Assembly (NCBI GenBank): GCA_965153455.1 | Contig: OZ234493.1 | Location: 1,116,001 to 1,180,000 of the forward strand | DNA: 64,000 nucleotides | From: Sphagnum compactum | Taxonomy: Eukaryota | Direction of reading: 5' to 3' | Shown: piece by piece, positions 10,757 through 61,888 of the stretch | How positions within the stretch are numbered: the stretch's first letter is position 1 | Layout of the letters: the number at the start of each line of letters is the position of its first letter | The notes under the pieces: generated by a model | What the model was told of the DNA's origin: nothing | The model's input: the letters and a program-made list of their open reading frames with translations, nothing else | The model's database searches: none | Position numbers and translations under genes: made by a program

Positions 10757-12086
10757 TCTATCTATGAAGGAAGGCAGTTTGTTTTGTAGCCATGAGAGTA
10801 ATATCGAACTGGGATACTTCAGATCGCCTTCTTGGTCTCTTTGGAAAGCTCTCAAGGCGAGAGGGCGGGGTCTGCATTGGTCAGGGCGAAACCACACTCA
10901 CATTGGTACCAATTTATACAGTGAAGATGAACAGATGAAGAAAGTCTTTCATTCAGTCAGGTCCCATTGTTTTAAAGTAGTGATGTGTGGGTCCATCATT
11001 TCAAAGCAGAGAAATGTGGGCCCTTATCTCCCTTGACTTTTGCAAATCCTTCTTCTCCTATTTATTTCCATAAGAATAGTCCTCCCCACATTTCTTCCTG
11101 CTGCTGCAGCCAACGTGGGAGACTAAACACCCCCCCTTCTTAAAGAGCTCTGTCCGGCGCTGCTTTCGCTCTGACAGTGCAGCCCTGCGGAGAACTGTGT
11201 TGTTCTGCCGCAGGGGTTTTATATTTTTGCCCTTTTTTCACTTTGTATCTGGAGTAAAGTGGAAAAATGAACTTCCTTTCCCAATGCCTAATAGTATGTC
11301 AGTGGTTAGAACCACAAGCCCTGAAGAGGAGTCGTCGGTTTGGTTCCTGTGGCCAACACTTCTAAAGTGATGGCATACAACAGTGGCGTTCAAGAGAACG
11401 ATTTTAAAGTGTTCTTCAAGCTTTTCCAAGAACATTAAAAACCCCCGGGGGGTTGCATGGTTTCTTGCATAACTGTGCAAGGCCAAAAAAGGTGTGCGAA
11501 AAGACAAGTGGAACCAGCGCCGAACAGAGCTCGTTAGGGGGTGTTTAGCGCCCCACGCAGCAAGCACTTCAAAAGAAAACCCTCTTTTCCTCCTCTTGCA
11601 ACAAAACACAAGGGGGGCCGTCGCGGCGCCCCAGAATCACAAAAAAAACAAAACGGGGGGAGGCATTGTGGCCCCCCCATCTTCCTCCTCCTGCAACAAA
11701 TTTTGCCTCAAAAAACACCAATGTGAGTGGGGTTTCACCCTCTGGCCAGGTGCATCATCGGCTTGGTTTCATGGCATTTGGACTTGTGGTGCAAAAGTTC
11801 TTGAATATTGAGTGATTTTTCACTGAAAATTAAAGTAAATCGTAGCTGAAAATTTCAGAAGAATTGGAATGTGCCTTCCATGTTGTTGGAAAGACCTTGA
11901 TAACAGGATTAAATGGAATTTATTTGGTAAGATTTGGATTCAGAATGTGGGAGATATTGATTTTTTTAAGTGATTTTTGCTGCTGAAAATTCAAATAAAG
12001 TTCCCAAAAGAACCAGGTTTTGAAAGAAAAATAAATCAGTTGAGGACGCGGTAACACTTAGGCCAAGGGCACAGGCCACACACTAG
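10757..12086 (+). mobile_element. Non-autonomous Helitron-like element, family 1, with a ~0.9 kb internal insert
   Basis: Begins A|TCTATCTATGAAGGAAGG and ends GGCC..GGCC-ACACACTAG|T. Both ends align with the shorter copy at 26742-27178. Confidence 0.65.
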
Positions 12087-12343
12087 TTTACACGGGAAAA
12101 GTATCTTATGGCAAAAGAAGAATTATGAAAAAAACTCAAATATTTCACGGTGCCAAAATATAATCTTCAAAAAATCCTCCAGAAAAAACTAAAATCCTTC
12201 AAGCGATTATTATAACTCTATAATAACTAATGTCAAGTTTCAACACAAGCCAAAATATCATGTTTCAAAAATCCTCATAATAAAAATAGACCTATTATTG
12301 ATTATTTATTACCTAGAATGGGCCAAAATCCCGTAAGCTACTA

Positions 12344-12999
12344 TCTTATATATAAAGTACCTTGTCTGTCCGTGCGTCCGTCCGTCCGACGACGTTCTGG
12401 GAGCATTTTCTATGGCAGAACCGGCCACAGAGATAACTGACCACCGGCTAAGCAGCTTGCCTCATTGTCCGCCGCTCCGTCAGTCGGACGTGTCGAGGTC
12501 CTGAAACCCAGATCGGGACCCGCCTGTCCGTCCGTCTGGTCGAGGTCCTGAAACCCAGATCCCAAATTGTAAAAGTAAAATAACCACCCAAAAACCTGCC
12601 TGGCTCCTCTTTTCCGGCAGTTCTGTGATTATGTGGATGAAATATTATACGTTTTTAGTTCCGTCCAATGAGGCTCAGAGTTCTGGATGGGTGGTTATGA
12701 GGATGAGATATCATGTATTTGTAGTTCCGTCCAATTAGGAGGAATGATTTGTGGATGAAATATTAAAGATTTTGTAGTTTTGTCCACTTAGAGTTTTGGA
12801 TGGATTGATTATGTGGATGAAATATTTATGTATTCGTAAGTTCCGTCTAATGATAAGTTTTGCATGGTGATTTATTTGGATGGAATATCATGTATTTGTA
12901 ATTCCGTCCAATTAGGAGTTCTGGTCTTTGGGGTCTCCTTTGGACTCCCAGTTTTTTCCCAGTGCCGTGTCGTGCCTTGCAGGCACGGGAGCCCACTAG
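12344..12999 (+). mobile_element. Non-autonomous Helitron, family 2, upstream of the mannosidase gene
   Basis: 5' A|TCTTATATATAAAG; 3' hairpin CGTGCC-TTGCA-GGCACG followed by CTAG|T. Internal ~55-65 bp degenerate repeats at 12630-12915. An empty-site paralogue at ~49115-49145 (minus strand) shows insertion at A|T with no TSD. Confidence 0.85.
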
Positions 13000-13756: not shown

Positions 13757-16700
13757 ATGGCACGGCCAAGGGCAGCCAGTTCTTGGCCACGAGTGTTGCA
13801 TCCTTCCTACTATTTGCGAAGACCTCGCCGCTTGTTGGTCCTTGTGGTATTCTTTGTGGGTACCACATTTCTGCTGTGGGATCGACATAACCTTATACAG
13901 CATCATGAGGTGACTACTTACTTTATTTGCTTTCTTTCCCTACTCCTCCTCCTCACTGGCACTAGAATTCCCGTGTTGATGAGCTTTTCTTAGGGTTTTC
14001 TTGCCTCATGAATCCTTTTCCAAGAGATGGATTCAACTGAGTGAAGAATTTTCAAAGCAGAAAGATTTTTGGGGACTTTCTTAGCCAAAAAGAATTTCAC
14101 ATTTTGTTTCTGGCAATATGGGAGACTTTTGAAGCCCATGGTGCTTCATGATGAGTGCATCATCAGCAAACACCATCGCTACTGGGTGTTGAATTGGTAG
14201 ATATAGAGATGGTGGCTCGCCCCAGGTGTCAGGTTGCCTCCTGCTTGTTGGTTGGAAAATCTCTGTCTTCATTTACAAAAAAAAAGGGTTGGTTGGCATT
14301 TTCCACTGAAGTGAAGCAAAAGTTTGATACAACTGTGGAAAGTGTGTGTGTATACTTATGCACAATGTGAGCTGCACACATTGGAAACTACATTGACCTG
14401 CTGATGAATATCATGAACATCTTGGATTTTATTGCAATGTTTTGAAACTGAAAGAGAGACAGACACATGGCTTTAAGGTCGAATCTTGGACTTAAGGGGC
14501 AGAGCGTGAACTGGAACCATGTTGGATCTTACATCTACAGCCTCTCATGTTGGCTTGTCAGCAATGCAGAGCACACTTGCGAAGATCAATCAGCAGAAGG
14601 AGAAGCTCACCCACAAGGCAGGATAAATTCCATTTCCTCTTTATGCATTATTTGTGCTTGTAGTGTTTCTGAATCTGTAGAGATCTGTAGTGGAAACTGA
14701 TTACTATCAGAGTTCTGTCTTAATGAGTGAGAAAATAAAATGCTGAGCATTTTTTATGTATGGTCTCCGCACTGAGAATACCCCTTACTAATCAGGAGGC
14801 TCCAGTTTTAGTCTGAGATTATTTCTCCGGACAGTTATCTATAGAGCTTGAGTGGAAGTCAATTTCTGTTGTGATCGCAAGAGTTCCAATCATAGACTGT
14901 AGGTGGTTTCATCAGCTGTCTTAATGAATTCTTGCTGTGCAGGTGGAGGAGTTGGCTAAGTATCTCAAAGGGGAGGGAAAGACCTTCCAGTTGGATGGTG
15001 AGGATGAAAGCAGTAGTAAGTCAGCACAACAGGGTAAGTCTGAGCAGGAAGGCATTGAGAAAGAAACAGAGGACCCAATTACAGAATACCGGAGAAGCCA
15101 AGTGAAGGCTGCTATGCTGCATGCCTGGAGCTCTTATGAGAAATATGCGTGGGGTTTCGATGAACTTCAGGTTTGTCTCTGTCACTTGAAGGATCACTGA
15201 TAGAAAGGAGGATACATTGATTCTACCTGTTAGGCTTTTAGGTCATGTATGAGATTGGATCTGATGCAGATCTAAGCACTCACTCATGCAGCATGTGCAG
15301 TGGCATTCCAAAGAAGCTCCCAAAATAGGCTCTCAAAGTTGCTGATTCTCTGTTTATTCGAATTGCCTACATATCACCTAACAGCTTCAATGAATTGCCA
15401 CCATGCAGCCTCAGTCGAGGCGGGGCGTTAATCATTTTGGAGGACTGGGAGCAACCATCATCGATTCACTGGACACACTATATATCATGGGCCTTGAGAC
15501 GCAATTCAATAAAGCTAGAGAGTATGTGTGACTCACCTTTGTAATGTTTTGTTACAGATGATATGAAAGAGTCATTAGTTGTTGCAGAAAAAAATCAGTT
15601 CTAGGAGCTACTCTGGCTTGCATTTGCGATCCCTGCCTTGTCCATCTGTTGCTGTTGGTGCATGGTTCAATGCCTTGCCTGTAAAAGTTGCTATCCTTGC
15701 TTTTTGTTGTACATTTGGGTTCCTATGTAGTTTGTTCCTCTCACATGATCAAGTGCAACTTTCATTGGTGTGAATGTGCAAACCACCTAATACCTGATGA
15801 ACTTTATGCAACTTTAACACTCCTCTTTTGTTGGTTGCACCACAGTTGGGTTGCTGAAAATTTGCACTTCAACAAAAACTATGATGCAAGTGTCTTCGAG
15901 ACCACCATTAGGTACACATCCCATGCCATTGTTGCACTTGGAAAACTTATCTGCATGCCATGAGTTGCCAAGGACTTTCTTGTCTGCTGCACCATGTTTT
16001 TCACAGTCACTGTATTGAGGAATCCTTTCCAAGTTAGATGTGAATACCAATGGAAGTGATTTCTAGTGCCAGTAGTTGCACCAAGCAGAGGAAGTTGAAG
16101 AAGTGATGGATATTTTTCTGACCCCTGTTTCCTAGGATGATTCTTTCTCCTTGGTTCAGCTGACAAGGTTCCTGTCTTCTTTCTAGATTGTGATTCCTCC
16201 ACTGGGTAACTGGGGCAGTTGGTAGCCACATTCTTCCCCAAGTCCTTTGAAGTTTAGGCATTACAAATGTTGGTGGTTGAGTGGTGACACTATTCATAAT
16301 GGGTGGACTTTTCTGTGTAACATTTAGCATGCCTCACAACAGGATTGAACTCAGAAACTGCACAGCCACACCCCCATTTTGTGTCTGAGGGATCAAGCAA
16401 ACAATTTTGATTTTGGTGATGAAATGACAAAACCCAAGAACAAGAGTGAAACAATACACATCCCAAATTTGTATTTATATAGGCCTCTATGTCCTTTAGG
16501 CATAGATGCTTGCATATACAGGGACATGCTAAAATGAAATAAAAGCTCTTTCCTTCAGAAGCTTGTTGCAGCTTGAATGAGGATACTGTTGACTTTTTTG
16601 ATTAGCAATGTCTCTTGAGTGCTAGCCAACATCACGTCTGAATCTTCCCATTGCTTCCGGAAAGGCAACAGAAACTCAGGACGCAGATTGTGTATAATGG

Positions 16701-19700
16701 TTTGCCCAAGTTTTTTGGGAAGATTATTATATGCTTATCTACACCCACTGTTGGGAGCTGATGAACTCAGTGGGTAGTCATGGCAGCTCGTCACTGCCGT
16801 TCGTGACGAAGGTGATGGTCTGTCACTTCGTGAGCGACTCTCATGAGGTTATGACTGCACTCATTGTCGTGTTACCTTTAATTGTTGTTGTGGAGATTTC
16901 TCTGCAACTTCATCGATCATCTATCTTCTCCTTTTGTGTCTCCGATGATGCTTGGCGCGTATGCCAGGGAAAAAGAAAATCAAGTAGTTCAATACCATGA
17001 GTCTTGTGTCTTCTTGTCCATGATCTATGGTGCTGAAGTACATGCCTTGAAACCAGGCAACCTCTATGCAGATGGTTGACATTGTTTCTCTCTTCATATG
17101 TTACTGGTGTGGACAGAGTGTTGGGAGGGCTGCTGAGTGCTTATGATCTTACTGCTGAAAAGATGTTCCTCACCAAGGCAAAGGAAATAGCAGACCGACT
17201 TCTTCCTGCTTGGGATACTAGAACTGGCATTCCCTACACTACAATCAACCTGGAATCTGGGCGTGCTCACAATCCTGGTTGGACTGGGGTAAGCTATATT
17301 TGTGTTTCTCATTGGAAGTCCTTGTGAGCTCGTCTACTGTTGTGTTCTTTGCACAAAGATTGATAACCCCTGAACAGGCAGTCTGCTATAACCTACCCTG
17401 AAGAATATCCCTGGATCTCAGATGGGTCCTGCAAGGAGTTATGGCACTAGAGAGGATGTGGTTGCAAGATAGGATAGAAAGTCAATTGGTGTGGTCTATG
17501 AGCTTTCTCTGATAGTCTCCCTTCCAAAATGTAGCTATGCGGGAAAGTTTGGATGTGGATAGATTTGTGTTCTGGACTAGTCTGTTGTTGAGATGTCTTT
17601 GATACTCCAAGAATGGGTTGTGAGAAATGATTTTGGTTGGTTAGGTAACTTACTAGAAGCACAACTGTGACATTTACTTTGTGTAGGGCTCAAGTGTCTT
17701 GGCTGATCTAGGAACTGAGCAAGTGGAGTTTATTGGGCTGTCCCTGAGAACTGGGGACCCCAAATACAAACATAAGGTAAGATGTATGGAACTGAAGGGA
17801 ACATGACCACTGTTTTGAACTCACCATCATTGTCAACCTTGGATTGTATAGGCTTCAGTTGTTGTGCATCAGGCTAAGGTCCCATTCTAGGGGCAGTTTT
17901 CAATTGCTTTTCAACAGACCATTGCCTGTTTTAAAGGAAGGGAATATTAAGTCAGTGGAGGTTGAGCTCTTGCTGGGTGTGCATGTAGCACAGACAGACA
18001 TACATACATACATATATATACACCCTGTTTTCCCTTCCACTTGACCATCTTCACTGCTCCTACCTTGGGTGCAGGTTGAAAATGTGATCAAGCAGCTGAG
18101 AAAACATTTCCCCAAAGATGGGCTGCTGCCCATTTACATAAGTGCAGATTCTGGGCAGCCCACAACTGGCAAAATTACATTTGGTGCAATGGGTGACAGG
18201 TAAGTTTTGGCATTGTCCACCTAATATGATGCTTTCTTGAAATGATCTACATGACAAGGAATCAGAGAGTTCATTGAGCTTCTGACTTGTGCGCTCTATC
18301 TGCACGAGTCTCTCAGTTTTTCCTTTCAAGTTGGTTGTCTGCCTGTCTTGGAATAAGGTTTTGATCTGTTTTGTGTTTTACAGCTTCTATGAATATCTGC
18401 TAAAAGTTTGGATTCAAGGGAACAAAACAGAGGTTGTGAAGCATTACAGGTACTCTTTCTGCCCTTAAAAAAAATCCTCTATTATTCAAGCCATATGTCA
18501 ATGTATGAGTTCACTATGCTAGTCCATGCAACAGATTCATAGATTGATTTGCAGCAGCAAGGGTAGTTGTTGAGCAATAGGCTATAATGTGCGCAGAGAA
18601 ATGTGGGAGCAATCTATGGAGGGCATGATGGGCTTGGTCTCAAAATCAACTCCTTCAGGTTACACCTTTCTTGCAGAGCGCTCTGGGTCCACCCTGTTCA
18701 ACAAGGTACCAAACAATGAATATGCAAAAGGTTCAATCCTGCCACAGTTGAACAATCTTAGCACAAAATCAGCCTTACTGGGAATTTGTTGCACAAAAGA
18801 AGATTCTAGAAATTTGGTGGATGCCGGCAATGTTGTCCTTACACCTGTCAACCATTGCTGCGAGATGGTCTTGGTGGAGGTGAAGTCACCTATCATTCAG
18901 GAAACTATTTAATTTTGTTGCAGATGGATGAACTGGCATGTTTCGCCCCGGGTATGCTGGCACTTGGCACAGAGGGAGCCCCACCTGAAAAAGCAGAGAA
19001 ATATTTGACACTTGCAAAGGAGGTAAAACATTGATGTTTCCAGATCCTTGATTAATCAGGTTACATGGAGCAGAAGGCGGGTTCTTTCTGCATGATGTTT
19101 GAGTACTCTCTGCTTCCTCCTACACTCTGTAAAATGTAATTCTGGACTTATTGTTTGTCTGACTGGGTTCTCCAAGATCTATGTTTTGGTGCACAAGTGC
19201 TGTCGATCTCTTGTAGTCCTTCAACTGTTTAGCTGTTGCTCCTTTGAGAGAGTCATTTATAGCTAAATTCATCTTTAAGGAATACTCTCGATCTTTTTGA
19301 TCGATTTTATCTGTGTTATGTTTCAATCCTCGCCTATCTTGTATGACACTCCTATGACATGTAAGGTTCTCTTGTCCACCTTTGAATTCTAACTGTAGTT
19401 CCTTCAGGTGATTCCATTGCTAGCCTGTCACTAAGTTTTGGGAGTATTCTTGAACTTTTGCAAAGGGGTTCATATTTTTTTCCCTCCTCTGTAGTTCTTC
19501 TGTCTTTCCAAGTTTTTTCCTTTTTTTCTCTGGGTTGCAGATTTTCATATTTCATTGCACCCTAGTGGTCAAGGGCAGAGTCCTAGTTTGTCTTAGGGAA
19601 TTCTAATGCTTTTTCACAGGCAGTTCTCTGCAAGTGCCAGCACTGTGAGCAATCTCTGAGTCAATTCAATCTTGCTGCCTCCCCAGTAGGAAGAAAATCA

Positions 19701-22700
19701 ATTAGTTTCTGTCAATCTTTGTTTTTTAGAGGCTGTAGTGTAGAAGGTAAGTCCAGTAACAGGTAGTTGCACAGAGTTTGTAATCCTGCTCCTATCATGC
19801 AGATCCTAAAGCTTTTGTTCTGCATCCTGGTTTGGAAGCCCAAAGTTCAATCCCTTCCTCTCTTAGTTGTGCTCCTCCATGCCTTTCTCTATAGAGACAG
19901 ATTGCACCCCTCATGATCCATAAACCCTAAACCATAAACCCTAAACCCTATCCATCTGTTCCTTTCCTGTTGTGTTAGCTTTTGTTTTGCTGGAGCTTAC
20001 AAAGGTTACCTTGAAAGTATTGTTGTGGATTTTTCTCTGCAATCTCTTAGATATGCATTCCTATAAGATTTTTAACTATGGAGTTTCCAAACAAAGATTG
20101 GCTCTCTGACCTTTTGTCCCGACAAAAGTTCTCTTCCAAGTTTCTTGCCCAATGTTTGTCCAAAAAAATTAGTGTTCAAACAAATTTCCTCCTCACAAGT
20201 TGGGTAGTTGAATTGGCCATACTTTGCAGCTATTCAATGTCTTGAGTCCCCTTGTAGGATGTCGTTTGTATAAAAGCAAAACCCAGTTTTTGGGTAGAGA
20301 TCTCTTCACTCCAGTCCTTACTTCATTTGATGGACAATATAGGTCTCTTATCTTTCTGAAACTCCCTGCGGTCACGGATTGTGTCTTTCCTGTGATCCAT
20401 AGAAGATTTTGGTCTACTCCCCCTAGTAGCTTGGAAGAAGTATTTTAATCTGTAGATCAAGATTTCTGTATTGGAGAGATATGGCAAAGGACTTGAGCCT
20501 CTTGGGGAAGTCATCGAGAGTAGCGATTCCAAGAAGTTCCAATTTCCAAAGATTTGTTACCCCTTGGTTGGGTGATGTAATTTCCACTGACCTAGACATC
20601 TTTTTAAAGGCCTAATTTGATTGGTCTATTTTTTAGAGGTACAAAGTTTAGATGATGTTTTCTGAACAGTTTTGTCTCTTCAAGAATCTATTTGAAAGAG
20701 GTCTTAACAATTTTTGTTCTTGAGCAAGAACAGATCTTATGGGTGCATGGGATTCAAATATATTTGATTAACAGGATAAGAACAAAATAAGGTAGTAAAA
20801 GTCTAATTTTATCTTCCTGGCTAGATTCCAGATAGATAACCTGATACATGTCCTGAGTCAGTCGTAATGCAGTGAGTTGGTATCCCAATGGGTGCACTGA
20901 TTGTGCAGTTGTAAACAACTGTCTTTTTATTTCTCTGTGTACTTTGAGGGATATCCCTCAGGAGAAGAACCCTAGGGTGTTATGTCAGGGGAGATCCTCC
21001 TATCCTTCTATGTTCCCCTGTTCCCATAAAAAGAGAGTTGTTTACATGCATGGAGTTTCCTGTACAAGTGGGTCCTCCTGAGGTTTGGGAACACTTTAAG
21101 ACTCACACCTGCAGGTGGCCCTCCCTCAGGAGAACCCACTTGTACAGGAACCTCCCCTACAACTTTTTGACTCACTTCTACCTCTTGTAATATGAGTTTA
21201 ATCTTTTGGTTCACCTTCTTGTCTCATTCTTGTCCACGTTTTCATTCTAAGTTACACTCAGTAAGAAGGTTTGTAGAGACAATCTGTTAGTTCCTAATCT
21301 CCCTGATTTCTCCACCTTCATGTATCTAGACAAAGACTATTGGCAATGGTATATGCGCAAAATCATTTTATACTTCTAATGGCTTCTCTTGCAGTTCCTT
21401 AGATTAGCCATACAATAAATTCAAACCTTTCTTCTTTTTTGTTGTTGGGTTTGTCCTCTCTCTCTTCCATGGTGCATTTTCTTCTTTGCTTCTTTAGTCA
21501 TAACCTTTTAGGTTCTGTTGAGCTAGCCAACTTTTATGGCCAACCTTATGACATTGACCCTCCTCCAATAGCTGATGAACTCCATCGGCATTTGTGGTAT
21601 CTGTTTACTACCATATGTGTTGCTGTTGAAGGTGTCTGAACATGATTACGACTTTCACTGTTGTTCAAACCCACTGTTGGGAGCTGATGAACTCAGTGGG
21701 TAGTCATGGCAGCTCGTCACTGCCGTTCGTGATGAAGGTGATGGTCTGTCACTTCGTGAGCGACTCTCATGAGGTTATGACTGCACTCATTGTCGTGTTA
21801 CCTTTAATTGTTGTTGTGGAGATTTCTCTGCAACTTCATCGATCTTTTTTCTAGTGGCTTTAGCGGATGTTCTGCATCCAAGTAGTCACCAGTGGTGTGC
21901 TTAAAGGATATGTTCAGGGTGCAGGAGGCCCCAACCACTACCCTATATATAGGCCTCTATGTCCTTTAGGCATAGATGCTTGCATATACAGGGACATGCT
22001 AAAATGAAATAAAAGCTCTTTCCTTCAGAAGCTTGTTGCAGCTTGAATGAGGATACTGTTGACTTTTTTGATTAGCAATGTCTCTTGAGTGCTAGCCAAC
22101 ATCACGTCTGAGTCTTCCCATTGCTTCCGGAAAGGCAACAGAAACTCAGGACGCAGATTGTGTATAATGGTTTGCCCAAGTTTTTTGGGAAGATTATTAT
22201 ATGCTTATCTACACCCACTGTTGGGAGCTGATGAACTCAGTGGGTAGTCATGGCAGCTCGTCACTGCCGTTCGTGATGAAGGTGATGGTCTGTCACTTCG
22301 TGAGCGACTCTCATGAGGTTATGACTGCACTCATTGTCGTGTTACCTTTAATTGTTGTTGTGGAGATTTCTCTGCAACTTCATCGATCTTGTTCAAACCT
22401 GCCCTCAGTGTTTTTGGTTATTTCATGTGTTCTTGAAGGTTTAGTTTCCTGTTGTACTGTTTGTTGATATGTTTTCAGATCTGAAATCTCTGTTACCTTG
22501 TTATTAGGTCATCTCTCAATTCTCTTGAGTTTCAGATAATTTGAAAGTATGTAGAAGTTCTTTTTACCAATGAACATATGTAATTGTTTGTTCAGCTTAC
22601 CCGGACTTGCTACAATTTCTACATGTCAACTCCTACAAAGCTTGCTGGAGAGAACTACCAATTCTATGATGGACAGGTACGCTTACAACTTTGTCATACA

Positions 22701-23536
22701 CCATTATGGCATCTAAGTTCTGGAGCTGAAGATTGCGCTGTGTGGCTAAAATCCTGTCACTATTGCTCCCATCAGTATCTAATTTTTGTTGAACGTCATA
22801 GAAAAAAGTCTGACCAATAATATATTTTGTTTGCAGGATATGCAAGTAGGGACACCCTGGAACATTTTGAGGCCAGAGACAGTTGAGTCCCTGATGTACG
22901 TGTGGCGCAAGACAGGTGATTCAAAGTATAGGGATTGGGGATGGGATATCTTCCAAGCTTTTGAGAAACAGTCACGAACTCCGACTGGCTATGTTGGCCT
23001 CAGAGATGTGAGAAACTTTCTCTTTTACCAGCCCCCACTCTTATTTCTCCATGCATTCTTACAAGGTCATGCCTCCTGTGCACCTCTCTCTAGGAAAGCT
23101 TCTCTAGTTCACTTATAGTGCTAATACGTGGTGATTGAAATTCGTGGGTGATGGAAAATTTGGCCTTTCAATATGTCCTCATGGAGGACACAATCCAGAT
23201 TATTTTTCTCATGGTCAAAGGCACAAATTGAATTTCAGTAGTTTTTCTTCTGTGGAGCTGTTTCAGGTGAGAACAGGAGAGAAAGATGACATGATGCAGA
23301 GTTTCTTTCTCGCGGAAACTTTGAAATATTTTTACTTATTGTATTCACCATCATCTGTAATACCGCTGGACAAGTGGGTTTTCAACACAGAGGCCCACCC
23401 TTTGCGAATTATCCCCCGTGTGGATGAGCCCATCAGTTTGGAAGACACACCGGAAGGCAAGGACAGCAGCATGCAGATCAAGTCAGGTTCTACACAATAC
23501 TTGAGGCAAAGACGCATTAATCCTGGAGGCAGATAA
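13757..23536 (+). CDS. MNS1: Golgi class I alpha-1,2-mannosidase (GH47), ~596 aa. Exons 13757-13909, 14570-14617 (tentative), 14943-15170, 15409-15521, 15846-15911, 17117-17288, 17687-17776, 18075-18199, 18384-18449, 18597-18705, 18924-19022, 22596-22676, 22837-23007, 23267-23536
   Basis: N-terminal type II anchor ([26 protein letters not shown]). GH47 motifs: [86 protein letters not shown]. Splice phases are consistent. MNS1 versus MNS2 orthology cannot be resolved. Confidence 0.95.
16476..16918 (+). mobile_element. Structured intronic retro-element, copy A (5'-truncated), mannosidase intron 5
   Basis: Near-identical to 21946-22388. Ends at the shared 3' terminus CTTCATCGATC. No TSD visible. 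Confidence 0.85.
19100..21600 (-). mobile_element. Heavily decayed non-LTR (LINE-like) reverse transcriptase relic in mannosidase intron 11
   Basis: Minus-strand remnants occur in RT motif order: [11 protein letters not shown] (GxPQG-like), [10 protein letters not shown] at ~21037-21048 (YVDD after three transitions), [11 protein letters not shown] (GLxxNxxK-like), then a frameshifted YLG-like motif. Many stops. Boundaries are approximate. Confidence 0.5.
19921..19950. repeat. Interstitial plant telomeric repeat tract (CCCTAAA)~4
   Basis: TAAACCCTAAACCATAAACCCTAAACCCTA. Confidence 0.8.
21669..22388 (+). mobile_element. Structured intronic retro-element, copies B+C: 1.3-unit head-to-tail insertion (544-nt period)
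   Basis: 21669-21844 repeats the last ~175 nt of 21851-22388 and is joined to it by T6. The whole insert is flanked by TTGTTCAAACC (21661-21671 and 22389-22399). Confidence 0.9.
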
Positions 23537-26741: not shown

Positions 26742-27178
26742 TCTATTTATGAAGGAAGGTAGTTTGCTTTGTTTTGTAGTTATGAGATCCACCAAATTGG
26801 GATCCTTCATATCATGTTTTTGGTGTCTTTGAAAAGCTCTCAATGATGAAGGGTGCACGGGCTTGGTTCCATGACATTTAGACTTGCGGTGTAAAAGTTC
26901 TTGAATATTGAATGATTTTTTCACTAAAAATTAAATTAAATTGTAGTTAAATTTTTCAAAAGAGTTAGAATGTGCCTTTGGTGTTGTTGGAAAGATCTTG
27001 ATGAGCAAGATTTAATGGAATTTATTTGGTAAGATTTAGAATCAGAATGTGGGAGATGTGGATTTTAAAGTGATTTATGCCATTGAAAATTCAAATAAAT
27101 TCCAAAAAACTAGGGTTTGGAACGAAAAATCAGTTGAGGATATGGTAACACTTGGTCCAACAGCACATGCCACATTAG
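26742..27178 (+). mobile_element. Non-autonomous Helitron-like element, family 1 (short copy)
   Basis: A|TCTATTTATGAAGGAAGG ... GCCACATTAG|T. Collinear with 10757-10870 plus 11750-12086. Confidence 0.65.
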
Positions 27179-35100: not shown

Positions 35101-38100
35101 AATTGGCTGTATCCCATTGACACACAGTTCTCAGTCAGTTATGAACTTTGGCATGTTAGCATGCATCACATGTTGCTGTTGAAAGTCAATGCACATGTGT
35201 GTGACTGTCCCTATAGTTCAAACCAGTCCAGTTGAAATTGGGCATGATATCAAGCCTCTCATGTTGCTGTCTAAGGTCACTGGATATGCATGTAACTGTC
35301 TCCATTGTTCAAACCACTCCTCAGTTTTTCCTGTGTTTCTAGGGCTGGAGTCTCTTCTTTTTCATGTTTTGTTTTAGGGGATTATATACTTCATCTCCTT
35401 TTTGTATGGTCTTTTCTCAATTCTATTCAGGTTGATGGTTTTTGTAAGTATGGGGAAATTCTCAAAACTTATTAAGATAGGTTATCATATCTCACACATC
35501 CAAGCATGTGCAAGTTGTTGGAAGTGGAGTTCATCTTCACATACACTCACAGTTTCCTTTGTATGCAGGCAGGTTATGAGGTTTTGGTGTGTGATTTTCA
35601 TGTTCCACCTTTCACTGGTCCAGAATCTGTGGTATGAAATCATTTGTCCTTTGTGTGAAGTGGGTAAATTTAGTCAACCCTTTTCATTGATCATGACCAA
35701 CTTCATATATGAGACTGCCTGAATACATATAAGATGCCTAGTGTTGCATTCTTGAGTAAACTCCCAGGTAGCGTGTTTGCTTTTACTCTGCATCCTTTGA
35801 GGGTCAAGATATAATGGTTCCATGTACTTTTGCAGGTGAGTGTTGTAAATGACAGATCACTTTGCAAAGGTTCTCTACACATAAGAAACATATCATGATG
35901 CAGAAAAACATATTGGGTTGTTTTTGCAGCGGTTATATGTAGGTCGGAAAGATATTGTCAACAGCTCTGCATGCCTTATCACTCCACCACAAGTAAAGTA
36001 AGGCTACATTCTCTACTCAATTGCAGGTTCTTGGGTCCAGGTTGTCCAACAAATTTTTCCCACCTTTGCCATGGAGGAAACAATAGGAGCATTATGATGT
36101 TGTAAACGAACAATGTCTAAAACCCACTATGTGGTAATACCTCTAGTTGCTTGCCTTGGTGAATTGCCATGTCAGGATTGAGGCCTTGAGAATTGAGAGG
36201 ACTTCCTCTGTGTATGTGTCCTCCGTGCCCTGCAACTCATCGTAGGAGTTCTGAAGTGCTTTTTATCACCCCTGCAGCTTCTTGGTGAATGGCAAGGAAG
36301 TGGACAGGAGAGTAACTGTGGGATTCCTGGTAAGGAGGCTGTGCTCAAATTGAGTTTGGATAGCTCCCATCATTTTTTGGCAAACTTTTGTCTGGAACAG
36401 CCAGGTTCAAGAGTCAGGTCAGTTATGGTTGGGCACATTTTTCATGGGGCTGTGTGGCATGGGAGGCAGGATGGGGGACCACAATTGCCTACAGATGTGA
36501 CAATGCTGGTAAAGGCAGGATCCAACGTACTACAAGTTATAGGTGAATTTCCTGGTGAGTTCAGCATGTAAGCTTTTGCTTGCATTTCTGTTCCACAGGT
36601 TATAATTGTCTGGTGCATATGGGATTCAGAAAGCACTTCAGCTTTCACTGGTTGTTTTTCCTTCCATTTCCTTTTTGCTTCTTGCATCCAGGCATGAGGT
36701 GGGAGCTGTGTCAGTGATCCACTCAATCCAGCAATTTCAAGTGTGGGGAGACATTATGGACATTCTTGCATGCTTTTGTCAAGCTATTGGGAGTAAACAG
36801 GGAATCATTTTGTTTGAATGCAGGCCCCTATAGCATTGCAGTTGCATCAACAATCAGGACTGCTCTTTCTACAGCAAATACTCAGTTGCAAGATTATGTT
36901 CTTCCTTCAGCAAAGACTGCAGGATTGGGGGAGATGGTGGAGGCAGATGATGAAGTGGTTGAGGGTGCTTCAAGAGTCTCTCTTCGTTGTCCAGTCAGGT
37001 ATTTCTCAGTCTGAACTTCACTAATCTGGAGTAGGGATTTACTTTTTTGTGGGCCTCTTTGGTCCCAATGGGGTACAACCTGAGACCATTGTGCTGAGTC
37101 ATAAGACACCATGGGCCAGTTGCTCTAAATCTGTCAGTCTGTTGGTTTCTTGCAATGTGAAATAGCCAAACGTCTACTCCAGAGCTTAACATTTGTCATT
37201 AGGCACTCTTTTGATTCTTGGTTAGTCTGGTGCAGAACATAGTTCTCCTGTCAACCCTTTCTTTTTTAGGTGTTGCCTTAGTTAATATTTCCACAGTGGA
37301 CTGGCAATTTACCTGGACCTGGTTGTTTTCCACTGGCTACTGCATGTCATTTACAGTTCAAGAGGGTAGGGTTCAAGTACAAGGGTTTTTAAGAAAGTTA
37401 TGTGTCAGGGTTTCTGAAAAACACATATGTTCTGAGCGTGTGTTAAGAGGCAGGCATTTTCTGTGTACAATTTATTGCATTTTTAGCAAAAACAGCCTGC
37501 TAGATGTGTAAAGTATCCAATCAACCCCAACATTTTGCTGACAGCCTTTGGCAAAACTTGCTTTACTGTTTGGCACTGCAGTCATCAACGCCTGGTGACT
37601 CCTGTCAAGGCAGCAACCTGCAGGCATCTACAGGTACTTTTAATTGTCTTCCCTTTTACAGCCTCCACATATCTTGGTGTTTTGTGTATTTCACTACTCT
37701 CTATGTAGGCCTCTCTATGCCTTAGGCTTGCTTGCTTGTACAAGGACTAGATAAACCAAAATGAAGCTTACTGTCACCAGCTTGTTGTAGCTTGAATAAG
37801 GATACTGTTAATGTTTCTTTTTAGCTATGTCTCTACAGCGGTAGCTGAGTTTTCCTGTACTCTTATCTAAACTCACTGTTGGGAGCTGATGAAGTCAGTG
37901 GGGAGTCATGGCAACTGGTTACCAATGATGCTGGTGACAGTCTGACACTTTATGAGCAACTCTCATAAGGTTATGATTGGACTCATCATTGAGTTACCTT
38001 TCAAAATATTGTTGTGGAGTTTTCTCCACGTTCTCTTAGATTGTCACATAGGTCTCTTGCAGGATTGAAACAAGTCCCGAACAGGAAAGGAGAAAAAAGT

Positions 38101-47300: not shown

Positions 47301-50300
47301 CTTGTGAGTATTAGGTATGGGTGCTTCATTTCGGAGTTGAGACAATGTTGTTTTGAGTTCTTCACGGATCTCCTTCAAATACATTGTCTTTTTTTCTTGA
47401 AGTAAATGTTCTTGATACATCTCGCGCATACTATCCACTTCCATAACCGTTTTTATCTCTTTGATGGCTTTCCTCATATGCCTTTGTGTTTTTAAGCTTA
47501 TACCTTCCTAAAAGTTTCCATGTACATGCCCCCAAACAATAGATTATTTTACTCAAAACATGCACTCAATGTTCAACGAATGTGTGTAGCTTGTAATCTC
47601 AAAATGTTTCGAGTTGTTTAATATTGTATTTTTTTCGTATAATGTAAATTGACTTAAAATCTTACCTTTTGAAATAAAAATGTGTGAACTTGATTTGCAA
47701 GGCATTAAGTATGGATTATTTACTTCTTATTTTCAACTTTTATGTTGAGAAAGGCCTTTACAATAAAAACCCCTTTTTAAGTTGAGGCATCTTGCATGAT
47801 GTGGAGGTTTTTAAGGTTCTTGTAGATTCAAATGTTCTCTTCTTGGGTTTCCCCCCAATTCATTAATTTGATATTTTGGATTGTTACATGTCATTTGCTT
47901 ATATTTACATTCCAAACCTATTATTGCACAAATTTGAAAAGGTAGAAAGTTTAGTTATGTACTATTCTCCCTCCAGGAAATAAGCTTGCTAGGAGCTGGA
48001 TTGAAAAATACCAAACAAACACAATTTAGTACATGAATAGCAAAGATTGTTGGAATTCATGGCCATTATGCAATGGATGTGGGTTCAATTTGCCACTTGG
48101 CCATGCTAATGTTACTTATAATAGAGTTAGTTTAACTATATGGTAAGGGTGGAAATCACCATGTTGGGTACTTAAGGGGAAAAAAAACACTTTGGAAAAA
48201 ATCAAGCACCTACCCTACCCCAACTATGGTGGTTTAAAAATACTACCCACCACCAAAAGAAGGTCTAGCCACCAACCTTTTCACTAGGAGAAGAAAAATA
48301 GGTTTATGGTCTCTATTAGTAAATTACTTAGTAGATATTTTAAATTTCAATCCTAGTTCTCTATTATCCAATAAATCTAAGAAAGTTTCCAACCAAACTA
48401 TTTTTTAATGTAAATCAATTCATGCACTCAAAAATTCAATGTATTGATCAACAAATGGTAAGGTTCAATAGAGGCATTTGAATAAAAGAAAGAATTAAGT
48501 TCTATTAAATCCACATCTCTCTTAAACACATATATGTATATTCCATTTTTGAGTCATAACAAGCATGCTACAAAAAATATAGGGCAAAATGTCTGAATTT
48601 AAAGAACAAAAACAATGATTAAAAAAGGAACCATTTTGTACATTTGTTTGCTTTAGGTTTTTATTCGCATAAAAACAACATTTAATATGTGAGGATATTT
48701 GCTACAAGGCTTATGTTGAAGATGGTTCCATTATCAAATGCAAAGTGATGTACAAAACATAGTTCAAAATGTGTGTGAATTTGTGTATATTTCTTTTGAC
48801 ATCCGATTTTATGGTCTAATTGCCCATGACACAAAATTTATATATTTTCATGTATGCAAGTATTGTTGTTTATTGTCCAATTTGCTAGCTTGAAAAAAGA
48901 ATTGGCTATAAATATGATGTTTTATGAGATGTTGTTGACATCCACATTCATATGCTTAATCGTATCGAAGAACTCAAACTTGTTTAAGAATACAATAATC
49001 CAAAAACATGATTTGGTATGCATGTGTAATGTTTATGCACATGTTGCCAATTTATTTGGTCATGTGTTGATCAACTGAATTTATTGGCCTTGCCTACGAA
49101 GGCAAGGATATTGTGTTTAGATTCATTATAGAGTATAGTAGCTTAAGGGATTTTGCCCCCTAGGTAATATGTATATTTTTATACGAGGATTTTTGAAAGA
49201 TGAAATTTTGGCTTGTGTTGAAACTTGAGATTAGTTATTGAGTTATAATATCTTGAAGGAACTTGGTTTCTTTTAGAGAAGTTTTTGAAGATTATATTTT
49301 TGCATGGTGAAATATTTGAGCTTCCATAATTCTTCTTTTGCCTTAAAATCCATTTTAATGTAAATGACAAGGCCACAATGTGACACACCCCTTGTTTATT
49401 AGTGGTATCAAATCAGTAACTTACTTCTTCGAGCTCTTTTCTTGCATGATCACGGGATTTGGTCGAATCAAATTGTACCATACCTAGTTGAGTGATATGG
49501 TGGCTCTTTAAATCAATGATATTTGTTAATGTTTGAAGCTGTCATGAAATATTGCAACTCCAAATGGTTCATTATGAAATTTTCAACATAACATAATTTG
49601 TTTTTCTTAAACAAGTATGTGGATTTTATGGGTAAAGAAATTTCAAGACATGATATAATGTTTTATACTTGATATTGTGACAATTTATTGGTCTACAAAG
49701 CATGTGTTCATGATCAACCCAAATATTAAAATGTGCATGAAGGTGGAATATGGTATGATATTGTACCTGAAAGTTATAAAGAATGCGTTCTTCCCTCATG
49801 TGGACCAAAATGTTTTCAAAATGTTTTTCAAGGATTTCATCATGTTTAATTTTAATGTAAATTGCCTTTAGCTTCTCGTCCAAATATCGAATTCTTAACA
49901 AGGGTGGGGTATTGGGATCCAACAAATTTGCACACTCAATTTCACTAGACCTTGTGTTTGTAATTTGACTTTGTAGCTGGCCACACATATTTTACCCATG
50001 CATTACTATTAGGGAATTGAAACTTTTTTATGTGTGTGTGTATATATATATACTTGTATGATAGCTTTTGGGTCATGGTAAACTTACAAATTATTGACAT
50101 TGGCCAACTTAACAATTAGGGAGTCGGTGGGTAAACTAGCCATCCAAAGTGAGCAAAATTGTTGGTTTTTTCAATTAATTTGTGGGGGAAGGACAATGAT
50201 ATTCGTGGTCTATAATTACAATTTGGCATTGTTCAAATATATAACACAAAGGGTTTGCATGTGACATGTCTAATGACTACATGTTCCAAGGTTTTCCAAG

Positions 50301-53585: not shown

Positions 53586-54529
53586 CGTGATAACTCTAAT
53601 ATGTCACAAGTATTCGAGAAACCTTCATCTTGGGTTGAATTAGTGCTAAGACAATGGCATGAAAAATCATTGCCTCCTCCGTGATAACTCTAATATGTCA
53701 CAAGCATTAGAGAAACCTTCATCTTGGGTTGAATTAGTGCCAAGACAATGACATGAAGAATCATTGCCTCCTCCGTGATAACTCTAATATGTCACAAGCA
53801 TTCGAAAAACCTTCATCTTGGGTTGAATTAGTGCCAAAACAATGGCAGGACGATTCATTACCTCCTCCGTAATAACTCTAATATGTCACAAGTATTCGAA
53901 AAACCTTCATCTAGGGTTGAATTAGTGCCAAGACAATGGCATGAAAAATCATTGCCTCCTTCGTGATAACTCTAATATGTCACAAACATTCGAGAAACCA
54001 TCATCTTGGGTTGAATTAGTGCCAAGACAATGGCATGAAGAATCATTGCCTCCTCCGTGATAACTCTAATATGTCACAAGCATTCGAGAAACCTTCATCT
54101 AGGGTTGAATTAGTGCCAAGACAATGGCATGAAGAATCATTGCCTCCTCCGTGATAACTCTAATATGTCACAAGCATTCGAGAAACCATCATCTTGGGTT
54201 GAATTAGTGCCAAGACAATGGCATGAAGAATCATTGCCTCCTCCGTGATAACTCTAATATGTCACAAGCATTCGAGAAACCTTCATCTTGGGTTGAATTA
54301 GTGCCAAGACAATGGCATGAAGATTCATTGCCTCCTCTGTGATAACTCTAACATGTCACAAGCATTCGAGAAACTTTCATCTTGGGTTGAATTAGTGCCA
54401 AGACAATGACATGAAGAATCATTGCCTCCTCCGTGATAACTCTAATATGTCACAAGCATTCGAGAAACCTTCATCTTGGGTTGAATTAGTGCCAAGACAA
54501 TGGCATGAAGAATCATTGCCTCCTCCGTG
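53586..54529. repeat. Minisatellite, 10 x 94 bp
   Basis: Unit CGTGATAACTCTAATATGTCACAAGCATTCGAGAAACCTTCATCTTGGGTTGAATTAGTGCCAAGACAATGGCATGAAGAATCATTGCCTCCTC, exact 94-bp period. Confidence 0.97.

Positions 54530-56107: not shown

Positions 56108-61888
<5,781 letters not shown>

Follow-up and report, generated by a model that had tools for sequence, protein, structure and literature searches.

The window analysed here is a stretch of DNA of 64,000 nt that contains, within an intron of a glycosyl-hydrolase-47 (GH47, alpha-mannosidase-like) gene, an insertion of more than one unit of a repeated element, which we call copy C. The C-terminal exon of the gene lies at 23135–23536. The features of the locus are as follows.

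19021–22593, + strand: host intron of the GH47 gene, holding copy C in sense orientation; a spliced RNA contig has its loose end at 18991–19020
21661–21671, + strand: left copy of the target-site duplication, TTGTTCAAACC, 11 bp, kept as a single copy at the empty site of X1
21672–21844, + strand: part assigned to a second lap of cDNA synthesis (proposed), unit positions 372–544 (3' module), ending in CTTCATCGATC and identical to 22216–22388
21845–21850, + strand: T6 (U6 in the RNA), head-to-tail junction tract and proposed annealing site of the target primer; the same junction is found in RNA contigs and in loci L095, L099 and L103
21851–22388, + strand: remaining unit, positions 7–544, assigned to the first lap of the cDNA (proposed), with the fixed 3' end CTTCATCGATC, from sequence reading and BLAST
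22389–22399, + strand: right copy of the target-site duplication, TTGTTCAAACC, 11 bp

Copy C, framed by one 11-bp duplication, is a head-to-tail series of 1.32 units, the unit being a non-coding element of 544 nt. It has a period of 544 nt, a 173-nt 3' fragment being followed by T6 and then by the remaining unit, such that the internal part between the two 173-nt repeats measures 371 nt (T6 plus unit positions 7–371). The sequence right after the first repeat is TTTTTTCTAGTGGC, while the terminal sequence at the 3' end of the element is ...GTGGAGATTTCTCTGCAACTTCATCGATC. No difference separates the two copies of the 3' part (BLAST aligns 181 nt at 99.4%, with the single mismatch in the flank), and the last 3 nt of the left duplication (ACC) also fit the element, which constitutes a microhomology at the 5' joint. 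In X1, a 522-nt contig fuses position 21660 to 22389, with 3 differing letters in 505, and lacks the entire 728 nt of copy C; the match of an X2 contig also breaks off at exactly 21660. The X1 contig is thus DNA of a close relative without the insertion. The letters and this empty site bear out the initial annotation, in which an 11-bp duplication was described around a 3' fragment of ~175 nt, a T6 and a full unit; its layout stands, while its coordinates for the T6 and for the unit were each off by one base.

Further copies of the element lie in the same window.

16476–16918, + strand: young copy A, 5'-truncated, unit 102–544, 99.5% identity to the unit
60410–60703, + strand: young copy E, 5'-truncated, element at 60423–60690 (unit 277–544), with the 13-bp duplication TTAGATTGCTTTG at both sides (60410–60422 and 60691–60703)
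37692–38026, + strand: old diverged copy, 73–79% identity (BLAST)
61402–61626, + strand: old diverged copy, 3' module only, 72–82% identity (BLAST)

Copies A and E are 99.3–99.5% identical to the unit and have their 3' end in common, and no target duplication is detectable around copy A. The exact 3' end shared by copies A, C and E, together with their variable 5' ends, had been noted before and is reproduced by BLAST; the 13-bp duplication previously ascribed to copy E is likewise present at the positions given above.

The same features were followed in a census of 120 metagenome contigs selected by a 20-nt core motif, a selection that favours copies with unit positions 372–391 and exaggerates the conservation of that motif. 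Duplications of at least 8 bp, with a median of 12, flank 33 of the 40 distinct complete young copies, compared to 16 of 776 mismatched control pairs. Across the young copies the target duplications span 6–26 bp, and in all 36 copies in which some duplication was detected the foreign sequence at the 5' end amounts to 4 nt or less. The complete young copies are 175 to 720 nt long with no pile-up of lengths and no dominant class of ~176 nt; 38 of the 40 have no 5' repeat and start at scattered internal points. Start sites do not pile up either, three to four of ~58 young copies having their 5' end at unit 357–372, and the 5' joints of truncated copies show microhomology. Every one of the 50 distinct 3' ends tallied is of the fixed kind (CATCAAGC in 24, CATCGATC in 9, CATGGATC in 7, CATCAATC in 6 and single variants in 4), 3 further ends without the motif having been set aside.

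Old copies gave an apparent pile-up of 5' ends at unit 347–371, which is partly a stop of BLAST at a variable T-run, as L081, L085, L104 and L071 extend further, and the tail-only BLAST matches in L026, L048, L111 and L119 are fragments of diverged copies. A short relative of ~200 nt, consisting of the 3' module alone, exists in at least L002 and L011; the older relatives are this module alone, and L002 has a dimer of it within one target duplication. In L108, a young copy abuts an old one.

Contigs with the element number 1931 in X1 and 2234 in X2, and its summed word depth is ~10,800–99,700, compared to ~33 in the flanks. The element thus has thousands of chromosomal copies, and the family is abundant and, since the site of copy C is empty in a close relative, young. 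The long duplications of variable length, the fixed 3' end, the 5' truncation and the empty site support a non-coding, non-autonomous element that is inserted by target-primed reverse transcription, in agreement with the initial proposal, which was based on the long duplications and the variable 5' truncation. The hallmarks of a LINE-mobilised retroposon, that is, duplications of variable length, 5' truncation and a fixed 3' end, are all present.

Among the copies examined, all seven that extend to unit position 7 or lower (window copy C, L099, the young and the old copy of L095, L103, L022 and L120) run on into the preceding unit and none starts there, so that a full unit of ~540 nt with a true 5' end, as first envisaged, is not borne out. 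The T6 junction, for which a comparison among multimers had been suggested, is intact and constant in all four young longer-than-unit DNA copies. In L099, a single 16-bp duplication surrounds a ~25-nt 3' fragment, T6 and a full unit; L022 begins from unit position ~310; and the old copy of L095 covers unit 43–544, the junction and then 4–385, which at 1.63 units is the longest copy seen. No copy has two junctions, and no tandem array of at least two full units occurs in ~1 Mb. The 5' repeats of the other longer-than-unit copies are only ~25–57 nt, compared to 173 nt in the window copy. A third unit in the old copy of L095, suggested by a local alignment (2.8 units), was supported by neither BLAST nor TRF.

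The T6 is likely to be more than a mere junction, as it behaves like a priming site. Among 50 ends, T occupies the six positions following the 3' end (+1 to +6) in 40, 37, 31, 29, 27 and 28 cases, respectively, declining to 15–17 by +9/+10, and the T runs after the 3' ends are found also in the upstream copy of the duplication. The U6 of the junction is predicted to be unpaired (P of 0.64–0.96 versus a mean of 0.33), and the other two T6 runs of the unit are predicted to be partly paired. A T6 tract also resembles a Pol III terminator.

Head-to-tail RNA of the element exists, as two RNA contigs carry the same T6 junction together with a variant that is rare in DNA. X15 and X17, metatranscriptomes of different studies and two of the six RNA runs holding the element, each have one contig of 573 nt. 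The first and last 30 nt of each coincide, and 573 equals 543 + 30 (k−1), as for a cycle closed at k = 31, which we take to be the k of Logan; the 30-nt redundancy itself is observed. The start points differ between the two contigs, and the variants are the same, namely G at 22055, T at 21964 and one T fewer at 22181 relative to the window. The G at 22055 makes up 0.4–0.7% of the DNA depth, while the AAGC end, at 15–25% of the DNA depth, is absent from the RNA contigs. A master copy with this G was sought in the 120 loci, where its 11-nt word occurs in no copy of the element, the sole match (L091) being unrelated. DNA may be present in RNA libraries, and copies of the element abound in DNA.

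The RNA cycle has a depth of 69.3, compared to 5.0–5.8 for the host exon, which we regard as a hint only; the flanking intron has a depth of zero in RNA, and the next exon is covered and spliced. In neither run is flank sequence attached to the cycle, which closes even at a mean depth of 9.5, suggesting that the junction is not rare in RNA. The most likely form of the head-to-tail RNA is a covalently closed circle of 543–544 nt. Linear concatemers, or terminally redundant transcripts from tandem masters, would give the same contigs, which therefore do not prove a circle: in a de Bruijn graph, a closed cycle would also result from a concatemer or from a linear RNA whose two ends have at least 30 nt in common. 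The earlier suggestion of copying around a circular RNA thus gains RNA contigs of two studies that close across the T6 junction, though not the circle itself.

The search for a ribozyme that could generate such a circle was negative. No Rfam family reaches the gathering score in the 64-kb window, which answers the Rfam part of the suggested database check, and no ribozyme family appears on either strand of 21500–22500 at E up to 10, where the 6 weak matches are to snoRNA, miRNA and PYLIS models (best E 0.28). A search by hand for a hammerhead core found a single CUGAUGA, on the + strand, and GAAA does not occur within 140 nt of it; the − strand has no CUGAUGA. ARAGORN reports 0 tRNAs, and the insertion has no poly(A). 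The lack of a hammerhead, of a poly(A) tail and of a tRNA head, noticed in the initial annotation, is thereby confirmed. No open frame runs round the unit, which is therefore non-coding. Judged by the consensus of the Pol III boxes, the 3' module carries a box-A-like AGTGG, whereas the match to box B is weak and not conserved; a promoter and terminator scan used models of bacterial type, whose output has no meaning for a plant.

The predicted circular fold has an energy of −181.7 kcal/mol with 68% of the bases paired, and the fold z-scores on a 543-nt cut are −5.1 (+ strand) and −4.1 (− strand). Conservation of this fold is not supported by covariation. Cells of the window fold are paired at 86.4%, compared to 86.0% in shuffled data, a value reached by 14 of 500 shuffles, and 308 of 500 shuffles score at least as high in covariation; RNAalifold on 31 copies of the 3' module yields 3 pairs. 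Dead copies, which decay neutrally, limit what these comparisons can show.

Among the 37 open reading frames of at least 250 aa in the 939 kb of loci and the window (~1 Mb), no LINE or reverse-transcriptase frame was identified, as judged by Pfam for the 10 longest, which are host plant genes or belong to no family, and by eye from the first 60 residues for the other 27. The core motif has 0 matches in a viral contig collection and is absent from two tundra "rod" circular RNAs as given in the main text of a preprint (bioRxiv 10.64898/2026.07.27.740603). A literature search on SINE or LINE retrotransposons of Sphagnum returned nothing relevant.

On balance, we favour a non-LTR retroelement that is active, non-coding and present in many copies in a moss-like plant, with a head-to-tail RNA as the template and priming at U6. 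The template would be an RNA whose unit ends are joined head to tail, most likely a circle of 543–544 nt, although rolling-circle concatemers would act alike. An enzyme of LINE type, acting in trans, would nick T-rich targets, leaving a bottom strand with an A-rich 3' end that would anneal to the sole exposed U6 tract. cDNA synthesis would then start at the C just 5' of U6, giving the fixed 3' end ...CTTCATCGATC. The enzyme would mostly drop off after 175–480 nt, leaving the observed pattern of 5'-truncated copies, microhomology joints and duplications of 6–26 bp; occasionally it would pass through U6 into a second lap, of which 21661–22399, with its 1.32 laps, would be an example. As neither a self-cleaving ribozyme nor a hammerhead core is present, the step of cutting and closing the RNA is without a mechanism. 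The more specific reading, namely a 543-nt circular RNA that has no ribozyme, or a new one, is inserted by LINE-type U6 priming and possibly amplifies a rare master from RNA to RNA, is tentative and in our estimate falls a little short of an even chance.

The same insertion could also start from a linear longer-than-unit transcript of tandem or dimeric genomic masters (e.g., 3' module, T6, 5' part and 3' module, or longer arrays), with no RNA circle and with the T6 as what may be a leaky Pol III terminator or a U tail. We consider this rather unlikely. A terminally redundant RNA or concatemer would yield the same 573-nt closed contigs, longer-than-unit DNA copies able to act as masters exist, and this origin requires no ribozyme, in keeping with the negative searches. 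The position of the T6 precisely at the fixed 3' end would suit a terminator, but an efficient one predicts a dominant class of ~176 nt, and there is none; likewise, the box-A-like motif in the 3' module and the older relatives, which are module-only and sometimes dimeric (L002), are offset by the poor box B and by young 5' ends that do not pile up at a start site. In addition, the old copy of L095 (from 43) and L022 (from ~310) reach beyond a module–spacer–module transcript, the ~1 Mb surveyed holds no tandem array of the kind such masters would form, none of the 36 duplication-bearing copies carries more than the 4 nt of foreign 5' sequence, and the RNA cycle is free of flanks in both runs and closed even at the lower depth.

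Template jumping, which is known for non-LTR reverse transcriptases, was the other option considered initially: the enzyme would have reached the 5' end of a linear unit RNA, added bases and switched to a second RNA. The structure of the window copy alone fits such a course. Jumping between linear monomers is nevertheless very unlikely, because no copy starts at the junction (0 of 7 stop at the supposed 5' end) and the junction is constant; the exact T6 in the four young DNA copies and in both RNA contigs indicates that the junction is templated, and it is present in RNA already before any reverse transcription. An ordinary insertion followed by a local tandem duplication of DNA, or by a second copy landing precisely adjacent, is more remote still. 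The element does favour T-run targets while having T6 runs itself, and the abutting copies of L108 are of this kind, but the empty site is without the whole 728 nt, one duplication brackets copy C with no second, internal one, the two repeats are identical, and L099, L095, L103 and RNA show the same junction with 5' points that differ. Finally, the window copy is bounded by two identical direct repeats of 173 nt, with 371 nt between them, which could be taken for the LTRs of a miniature element (TRIM, SMART or LTR retrozyme). This we regard as scarcely tenable: the general absence of a 5' repeat from complete young copies (38 of 40), with their scattered internal starts, refutes it, the duplication is 11 bp here and 6–26 bp elsewhere instead of 4–5 bp, the 5' repeats of other longer-than-unit copies are ~25–57 nt, the repeat has neither a TG start nor a CA end, and there is no hammerhead.

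To our knowledge, all retroelements that propagate via small circular RNAs, i.e., the plant LTR and the animal non-LTR retrozymes, have been defined and found by their hammerheads, and a ribozyme-less element would therefore be invisible to ribozyme-based searches. If the template of the present element is a circle, then circle-based retrotransposition with LINE-type insertion exists in plants too, a U-tract inside a closed RNA can replace the 3' tail in target-primed reverse transcription, and the circle is made by a pair of host nuclease and ligase or by a new self-cleaving motif. Some "viroid-like" circles in metatranscriptomes of peat, soil and permafrost may then be products of plant genomes. 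Because the family is young and abundant, a direct test on moss RNA is possible.

LINE-dependent SINEs and tail-sharing retroposons leave the footprints of target-primed reverse transcription, are non-coding, a few hundred nt long and of high copy number, and are frequent in introns. The moss element resembles SINEs in its variable duplications, 5' truncation, 5' microhomology, fixed 3' end, intronic location and high copy number. Unlike SINEs, it has no detected tRNA, 7SL or 5S head, and no Pol III promoter of the classical type. It also lacks a defined 5' end and has neither poly(A) nor simple repeats as a tail; its 3' "tail" is an internal U6 tract and its RNA is joined head to tail. The fixed-length terminal repeats, 5-bp duplication and TG...CA ends of TRIM and SMART elements are absent as well.

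In the available text of Dong et al. (2016, PMC4897178), the circRNA-derived pseudogenes of mammals appear as rare by-products that arise when L1 copies back-spliced exons. They share with the moss element a DNA junction that exists only in circular or head-to-tail RNA, implying reverse transcription around it, whereas the latter forms a dedicated family that amplifies and has a priming site of its own. The retroviroid CarSV, as far as described in the available part of a preprint (Lee et al. 2022, 10.1101/2022.07.19.500677), is likewise small, structured and non-coding and exists as DNA copies too; it has 275 nt, hammerheads in both strands and DNA linked to a pararetrovirus. Viroids, which replicate autonomously from RNA to RNA, have no DNA stage according to the same text. 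Unlike both, the moss element has its thousands of chromosomal copies, made by LINE-type insertion.

The closest comparison is with the retrozymes. In the available text on plant LTR retrozymes (Cervera, Urbina & de la Pena 2016, PMC4918200), type III hammerheads lie in LTRs of 300–400 bp, with 4-bp duplications and with a PBS and PPT matching Ty3-gypsy. Common to these and the moss element are the plant host, a non-coding, non-autonomous unit of hundreds of nt with a structured RNA, head-to-tail or circular RNA abundant in total RNA, direct terminal repeats and empty-site polymorphism between relatives. The moss element differs in having no hammerhead, duplications of 6–26 bp, truncated 5' ends and a fixed 3' end, and the last three features point to LINE-type insertion; no PBS was recognized on reading TTTTTTCTAGTGGC after the first repeat, and the 5' repeats vary from ~25 to 173 nt or are absent. 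The animal non-LTR retrozymes, as presented in the available text of Cervera & de la Pena (2020, PMC7229834), contain type I hammerheads within short tandem repeats of 150–450 bp, form long tandem arrays with units of 170–400 nt, and are tied to Penelope-like elements in the accessible part of a 2026 bioRxiv preprint. Similar to the moss element, they have no LTR, PBS or PPT, larger duplications and head-to-tail DNA copies; their RNAs, with units of a few hundred nt, occur in linear, multimeric and circular form, and a non-LTR enzyme mobilises them in trans. The moss element departs from them in lacking a ribozyme, in its mostly single, 5'-truncated, dispersed copies of at most 1.63 units and in its plant host. 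It is not a retrozyme by definition, because the defining hammerhead is absent by Rfam and by hand search, and the term "retrozyme-like" of the initial annotation holds as an analogy only. Should the circular-RNA reading be correct, for which we would give slightly less than even chances, the element would represent a plant, non-LTR, hammerhead-free counterpart of the retrozymes.

The flagged insertion, window C, consists of 1.32 units of the 544-nt element enclosed by a single target duplication, as the initial annotation had described it (an 11-bp duplication around a 3′ fragment, a T6 junction and a full unit), although with coordinates one base off. Unit positions 1–544 correspond to 21845–22388. 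The parts of the insertion and the other copies in the window, the latter located by a BLAST comparison of the region with the window, are as follows.

Element copies in the window
21661–21671 and 22389–22399: 11-bp target duplication TTGTTCAAACC, by direct reading of the sequence
21672–21844: 173-nt piece of the preceding unit, ending in CTTCATCGATC
21845–21850: T6, between the 173-nt piece and the 538-nt remainder
21851–22388: remaining 538 nt of the unit, ending in CTTCATCGATC
16476–16918, same strand as window C: young copy A, 99.3–99.5% identical
60423–60690, same strand as window C: young copy E, 99.3–99.5% identical
37692–38026, + strand: old copy
61402–61626, + strand: old copy

The period in window C is 544 nt, and the two copies of the repeated 173 nt are identical by BLAST. 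The window copies are independent insertions, because their flanking sequences are unrelated to one another. The 13-bp target duplication reported for copy E was confirmed, and none was detected in the flanks of copy A.

Judging from the BTB and glycosyl-hydrolase-47 (GH47) domains in its ORFs, the window is plant DNA; genes on related contigs include PPR-E, F-box, pyruvate kinase and the like. An RNA contig has 19020 spliced to 22594, which places window C inside a 3.6-kb GH47 intron in the sense orientation. All five window copies lie on the + strand, that of the host genes, and are hence sense in introns and genic blocks; the bias probably has its source in the preference for T-run targets meeting U-rich introns. 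Genic blocks with a G+C of about 0.40–0.45 alternate with AT-rich blocks of about 0.25–0.32 (4–10, 24–32, and 42–54 kb), and every element copy of the window is found in the former. An AT-rich block is bordered by a 94-bp tandem array (53586–54529, 10.0 copies, 94% matches), while a 56-bp tandem repeat (63764–64000, 4.2 copies, 96% matches) continues past the window end. A separate dispersed repeat at 11760–12352 is no kin of the studied element; its 11760–12080 portion resembles 26860–27174 (82.7%), and 12097–12352 resembles 49127–49355 in inverted orientation (78%).

Window C is a young insertion. Among the listed public runs, 20 of 24 contain at least half of the sampled words, six of these being RNA libraries from six studies (shares 0.59–0.63), metatranscriptomes whose labels name wetland, soil, permafrost, plant and moss and suggest a peat-moss-like host plant. 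Four runs, the DNA runs X1 and X2 and the metatranscriptomes X15 and X17, were compared with window 21400–22700. In X1, a contig of 522 nt passes directly from 21660 to 22389 with one copy of the 11-mer left and 3 other letters in 505; this is the empty site of window C in a very close relative. The match of an X2 contig (9 other letters in 261) likewise breaks off exactly at 21660. The element itself is covered by 1931 contigs in X1 and 2234 in X2. Its summed word depth of about 10,800–99,700 versus about 33 in the flanks, which rises toward the 3′ end, is not a copy number and is read only as very many copies.

The mode of insertion was addressed with a census of related copies. A 20-nt core motif (unit 372–391) matched at least 120 metagenome contigs and had no match in viral_contigs; by construction, every sampled locus contains one or more copies of it, which biases the sample. 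The unit was searched with BLAST in the 120 loci (939 kb) and in the window; the 193 resulting pieces collapse to 156 non-overlapping hits, 76 of them at least 90% identical. Both ends are visible in 40 distinct young copies. These are 175 to 720 nt long with no pile-up of lengths, 38 being shorter than the unit, and a target duplication of at least 8 bp is present in 33 of them (at least 10 bp in 30; median 12, longest 26), compared to 16 of 776 when 5′ flanks were paired with the wrong 3′ flanks. In 25 of 36 copies the duplication match extends 1–8 nt into the element, an apparent microhomology given that BLAST boundaries are soft, and 7 copies of the 36 with a detected duplication carry 1–4 nt of filler.

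The 3′ end is constant. At 50 distinct ends (3 more, with a mutated end motif, were left out), CTTCAT is followed by CAAGC (24), CGATC (9), GGATC (7), CAATC (6), or single variants (4). The next nucleotide is T in 40 of the 50, and the following positions have 37, 31, 29, 27, and 28 T, falling to 15–17 by positions 9–10. These T runs recur upstream, in the other copy of the duplication (e.g., TTTTTG, TTTTTC, TTTTGG) and are therefore part of the target rather than of the element. Read in the orientation of the element, the flanks of 43 of the 50 copies have more T than A. The duplications, the constant 3′ end and the T-run flanks are characteristic of LINE-type target-primed reverse transcription, a mechanism that is well supported here and that the initial annotation had deduced from the long duplications and variable 5′ truncation. 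Beyond the usual signature, the target T run, which reads as A on the primer strand, has its counterpart in the T6 of the element itself.

A linear monomer starting at CTAGTGG would lead one to expect that copies getting that far end there. All seven copies that reach unit position 7 or below continue instead into the 3′ part of the preceding unit.

Copies that pass through the junction (L numbers denote metagenome contigs)
Window C: 173 nt of the preceding unit before the junction
L099: about 25 nt, T6, full unit; single 16-bp duplication TTATTACATACATTAA; 7 nt filler
L095, young copy: 57 nt of the preceding unit; ends at contig edge
L103: 53 nt of the preceding unit; T6 retained, then an 11-nt deletion; ends at contig edge
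L022 (old): begins at about unit 310; T4 at the junction
L120 (old): begins at about unit 474; a deletion at the junction
L095, old copy: unit 43–544, diverged junction, 4–385; 1.63 units

L051 may be an eighth such copy (alignment from 531 to 80, score 54 vs 30 for shuffles). One alignment gives the old copy of L095 as 2.8 units, a reading that BLAST and TRF do not back and that was not counted. Ungapped contigs crossing the junction at 8–12% divergence also occur in the DNA runs (X1 records 2 + 3, X2 record 21). T6 is present at the junction in 4/4 young longer-than-unit copies. The unit has no 5′ end, and the junction is constant and traversed.

The same junction is found in RNA. X15 (2017) and X17 (2025), from separate studies, each contain one contig of exactly 573 nt. 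That of X15 aligns as a single piece on 21731–22304, spanning T6, and that of X17 covers 21953–22212 and then goes back 544 to cover 21669–21982. In both, the leading and trailing 30 nt coincide, while the start points are not the same. Logan contigs are built with k = 31, and 573 = 543 + 30 is what a closed 543-nt cycle in a de Bruijn graph would give; the 30-nt redundancy itself is observed. The cycle is 543 rather than 544 nt owing to one T fewer at 22181. Wherever the two contigs depart from the window copy they agree: both have T at 21755/22299 (the form that prevails in DNA), T at 21964, and G at 22055, which makes up only 0.7% (X1) and 0.4% (X2) of DNA depth and is absent from every element copy of the 120 loci. 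Both have the GATC end; at 21841/21843 the AAGC form has 15–25% of the DNA depth and no RNA depth. In X15 and X17 cover is absent from the flanking intron and returns, with splicing, at the next exon.

The existence of RNA with a head-to-tail junction is thus well supported. We conclude that it stems from a particular lineage and is no smear of genomic copies. A smear is what trace DNA should give, and in X1 and X2 the element does break up in this way, into pieces of 91–196 nt. A further conclusion is that the RNA cycle carries no flank at comparable abundance. The cycle closed in X15 at a mean depth of only 9.5, which suggests that junction reads are no small minority of the RNA. Since 22055G is rare in DNA and common to both RNA contigs, the expressed lineage is rare in DNA, reflecting either few master copies or amplification at the RNA level. 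Of the circular-RNA template put forward in the initial annotation, the head-to-tail RNA is borne out, whereas the 573-nt contigs are equally compatible with a circle, with a linear RNA whose ends repeat at least 30 nt, and with a long concatemer.

Scans of the unit region and the window gave no ribozyme, tRNA or other Rfam family. By motif, one CUGAUGA was found with no GAAA within 140 nt, and the other strand has no CUGAUGA, in agreement with the earlier failure to find a hammerhead. No frame is open all round the unit. Folded as a circle, the + strand has a predicted energy of −181.7 kcal/mol with 68% of bases paired; a 543-nt cut gives z values of −5.1 (+ strand) and −4.1 (− strand) against dinucleotide shuffles. 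The junction U6, preceded by a predicted hairpin (unit 509–538), is predicted to be open (unpaired probability 0.64–0.96 vs a molecule mean of 0.33), and the other T6 runs (220–225, 337–342) are partly paired. Copies always end at the junction T6, after GATC, and never at the other two, so a U run alone is insufficient to define the start site. For the 3′ module (31 copies, among which dead ones decay freely), shuffle tests gave no statistical support for a conserved fold: paired cells are 86.4% vs 86.0% shuffled (14/500 reach it), the covariation score is reached by 308/500 shuffles, and RNAalifold returns 3 pairs.

From the older relatives (70–85% identity) it can be seen that the old core of the family is the final stretch of roughly 200 nt (unit about 347–544); the 544-nt unit thus appears to be this module with about 346 nt added. 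L002:840–1400 is an older dimeric member, with two diverged roughly 200-nt 3′-module relatives head to tail within one 11-bp duplication TCTGTTCATGA. In L011:8480–9420 (− strand) the 3′ end of an old copy runs straight into a second short copy at unit position 347 or thereabouts of the latter. In L108:1380–2161 (− strand) the 3′ end of a young copy adjoins an older relative whose 5′ end lies at unit about 359. These two joints reflect either nested insertion at a preferred site or additional products of the head-to-tail kind.

We count as observed the duplications, fixed 3′ end, 5′ truncation, T-run targets, junction pass-through and head-to-tail RNA. In the mechanism that we propose, a LINE enzyme would nick the target and the A-rich primer end would base-pair with the exposed U6. 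The cDNA would then begin at the C preceding U6 and proceed backwards on an endless template, mostly ending within a few hundred nt, such that a second lap would be rare. A closed circle is the most likely template, in our judgment somewhat better than an even bet, because it yields longer-than-unit templates without a pre-existing tandem master and accounts for both the absence of flank on the RNA and the persistence of such RNA in peat and soil.

The main rival, a linear concatemer or module–spacer–module transcript from tandem masters, in which T6 might serve as a leaky Pol III terminator, is possible but distinctly less probable. The absence of a ribozyme, the resemblance of T6 to a terminator and a box-A-like motif speak for it. 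Against it, the 5′ ends of young copies do not pile up (3–4 of about 58 at unit 357–372), no 176-nt class dominates, L022 and the old copy of L095 extend too far back, and no array of at least two units occurs in about 1 Mb. Template jumping between linear monomers, which the initial annotation had offered beside the circle, is disfavoured and improbable, the junction being constant and run through rather than an end. We give still less credence to a duplication at the DNA level, and least to an LTR-type element, since 38/40 complete copies are without a 5′ repeat and the remaining ones differ in repeat length.

No paper on a comparable element in mosses was found in the literature, and a catalogued repeat entry (Dfam, Repbase, supplements) may exist. 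The 4-bp duplication, PBS, PPT and LTRs of plant retrozymes (PMC4918200) are not seen in the element, and neither are the type I hammerhead and tandem arrays of animal retrozymes (PMC7229834). It lacks the defining hammerhead of either kind and is a member of neither. Its insertion footprints are like those of LINE-dependent retroposons, but it has no SINE head, defined 5′ end or terminal tail. As a precedent for LINE-type copying around a circle, the mammalian circRNA-derived pseudogenes come closest; unlike the present element, they are accidents that form no family (PMC4897178). What it shares with retrozymes is that it is non-coding and appears to cycle between head-to-tail or circular RNA and DNA copies by means of a borrowed reverse transcriptase.
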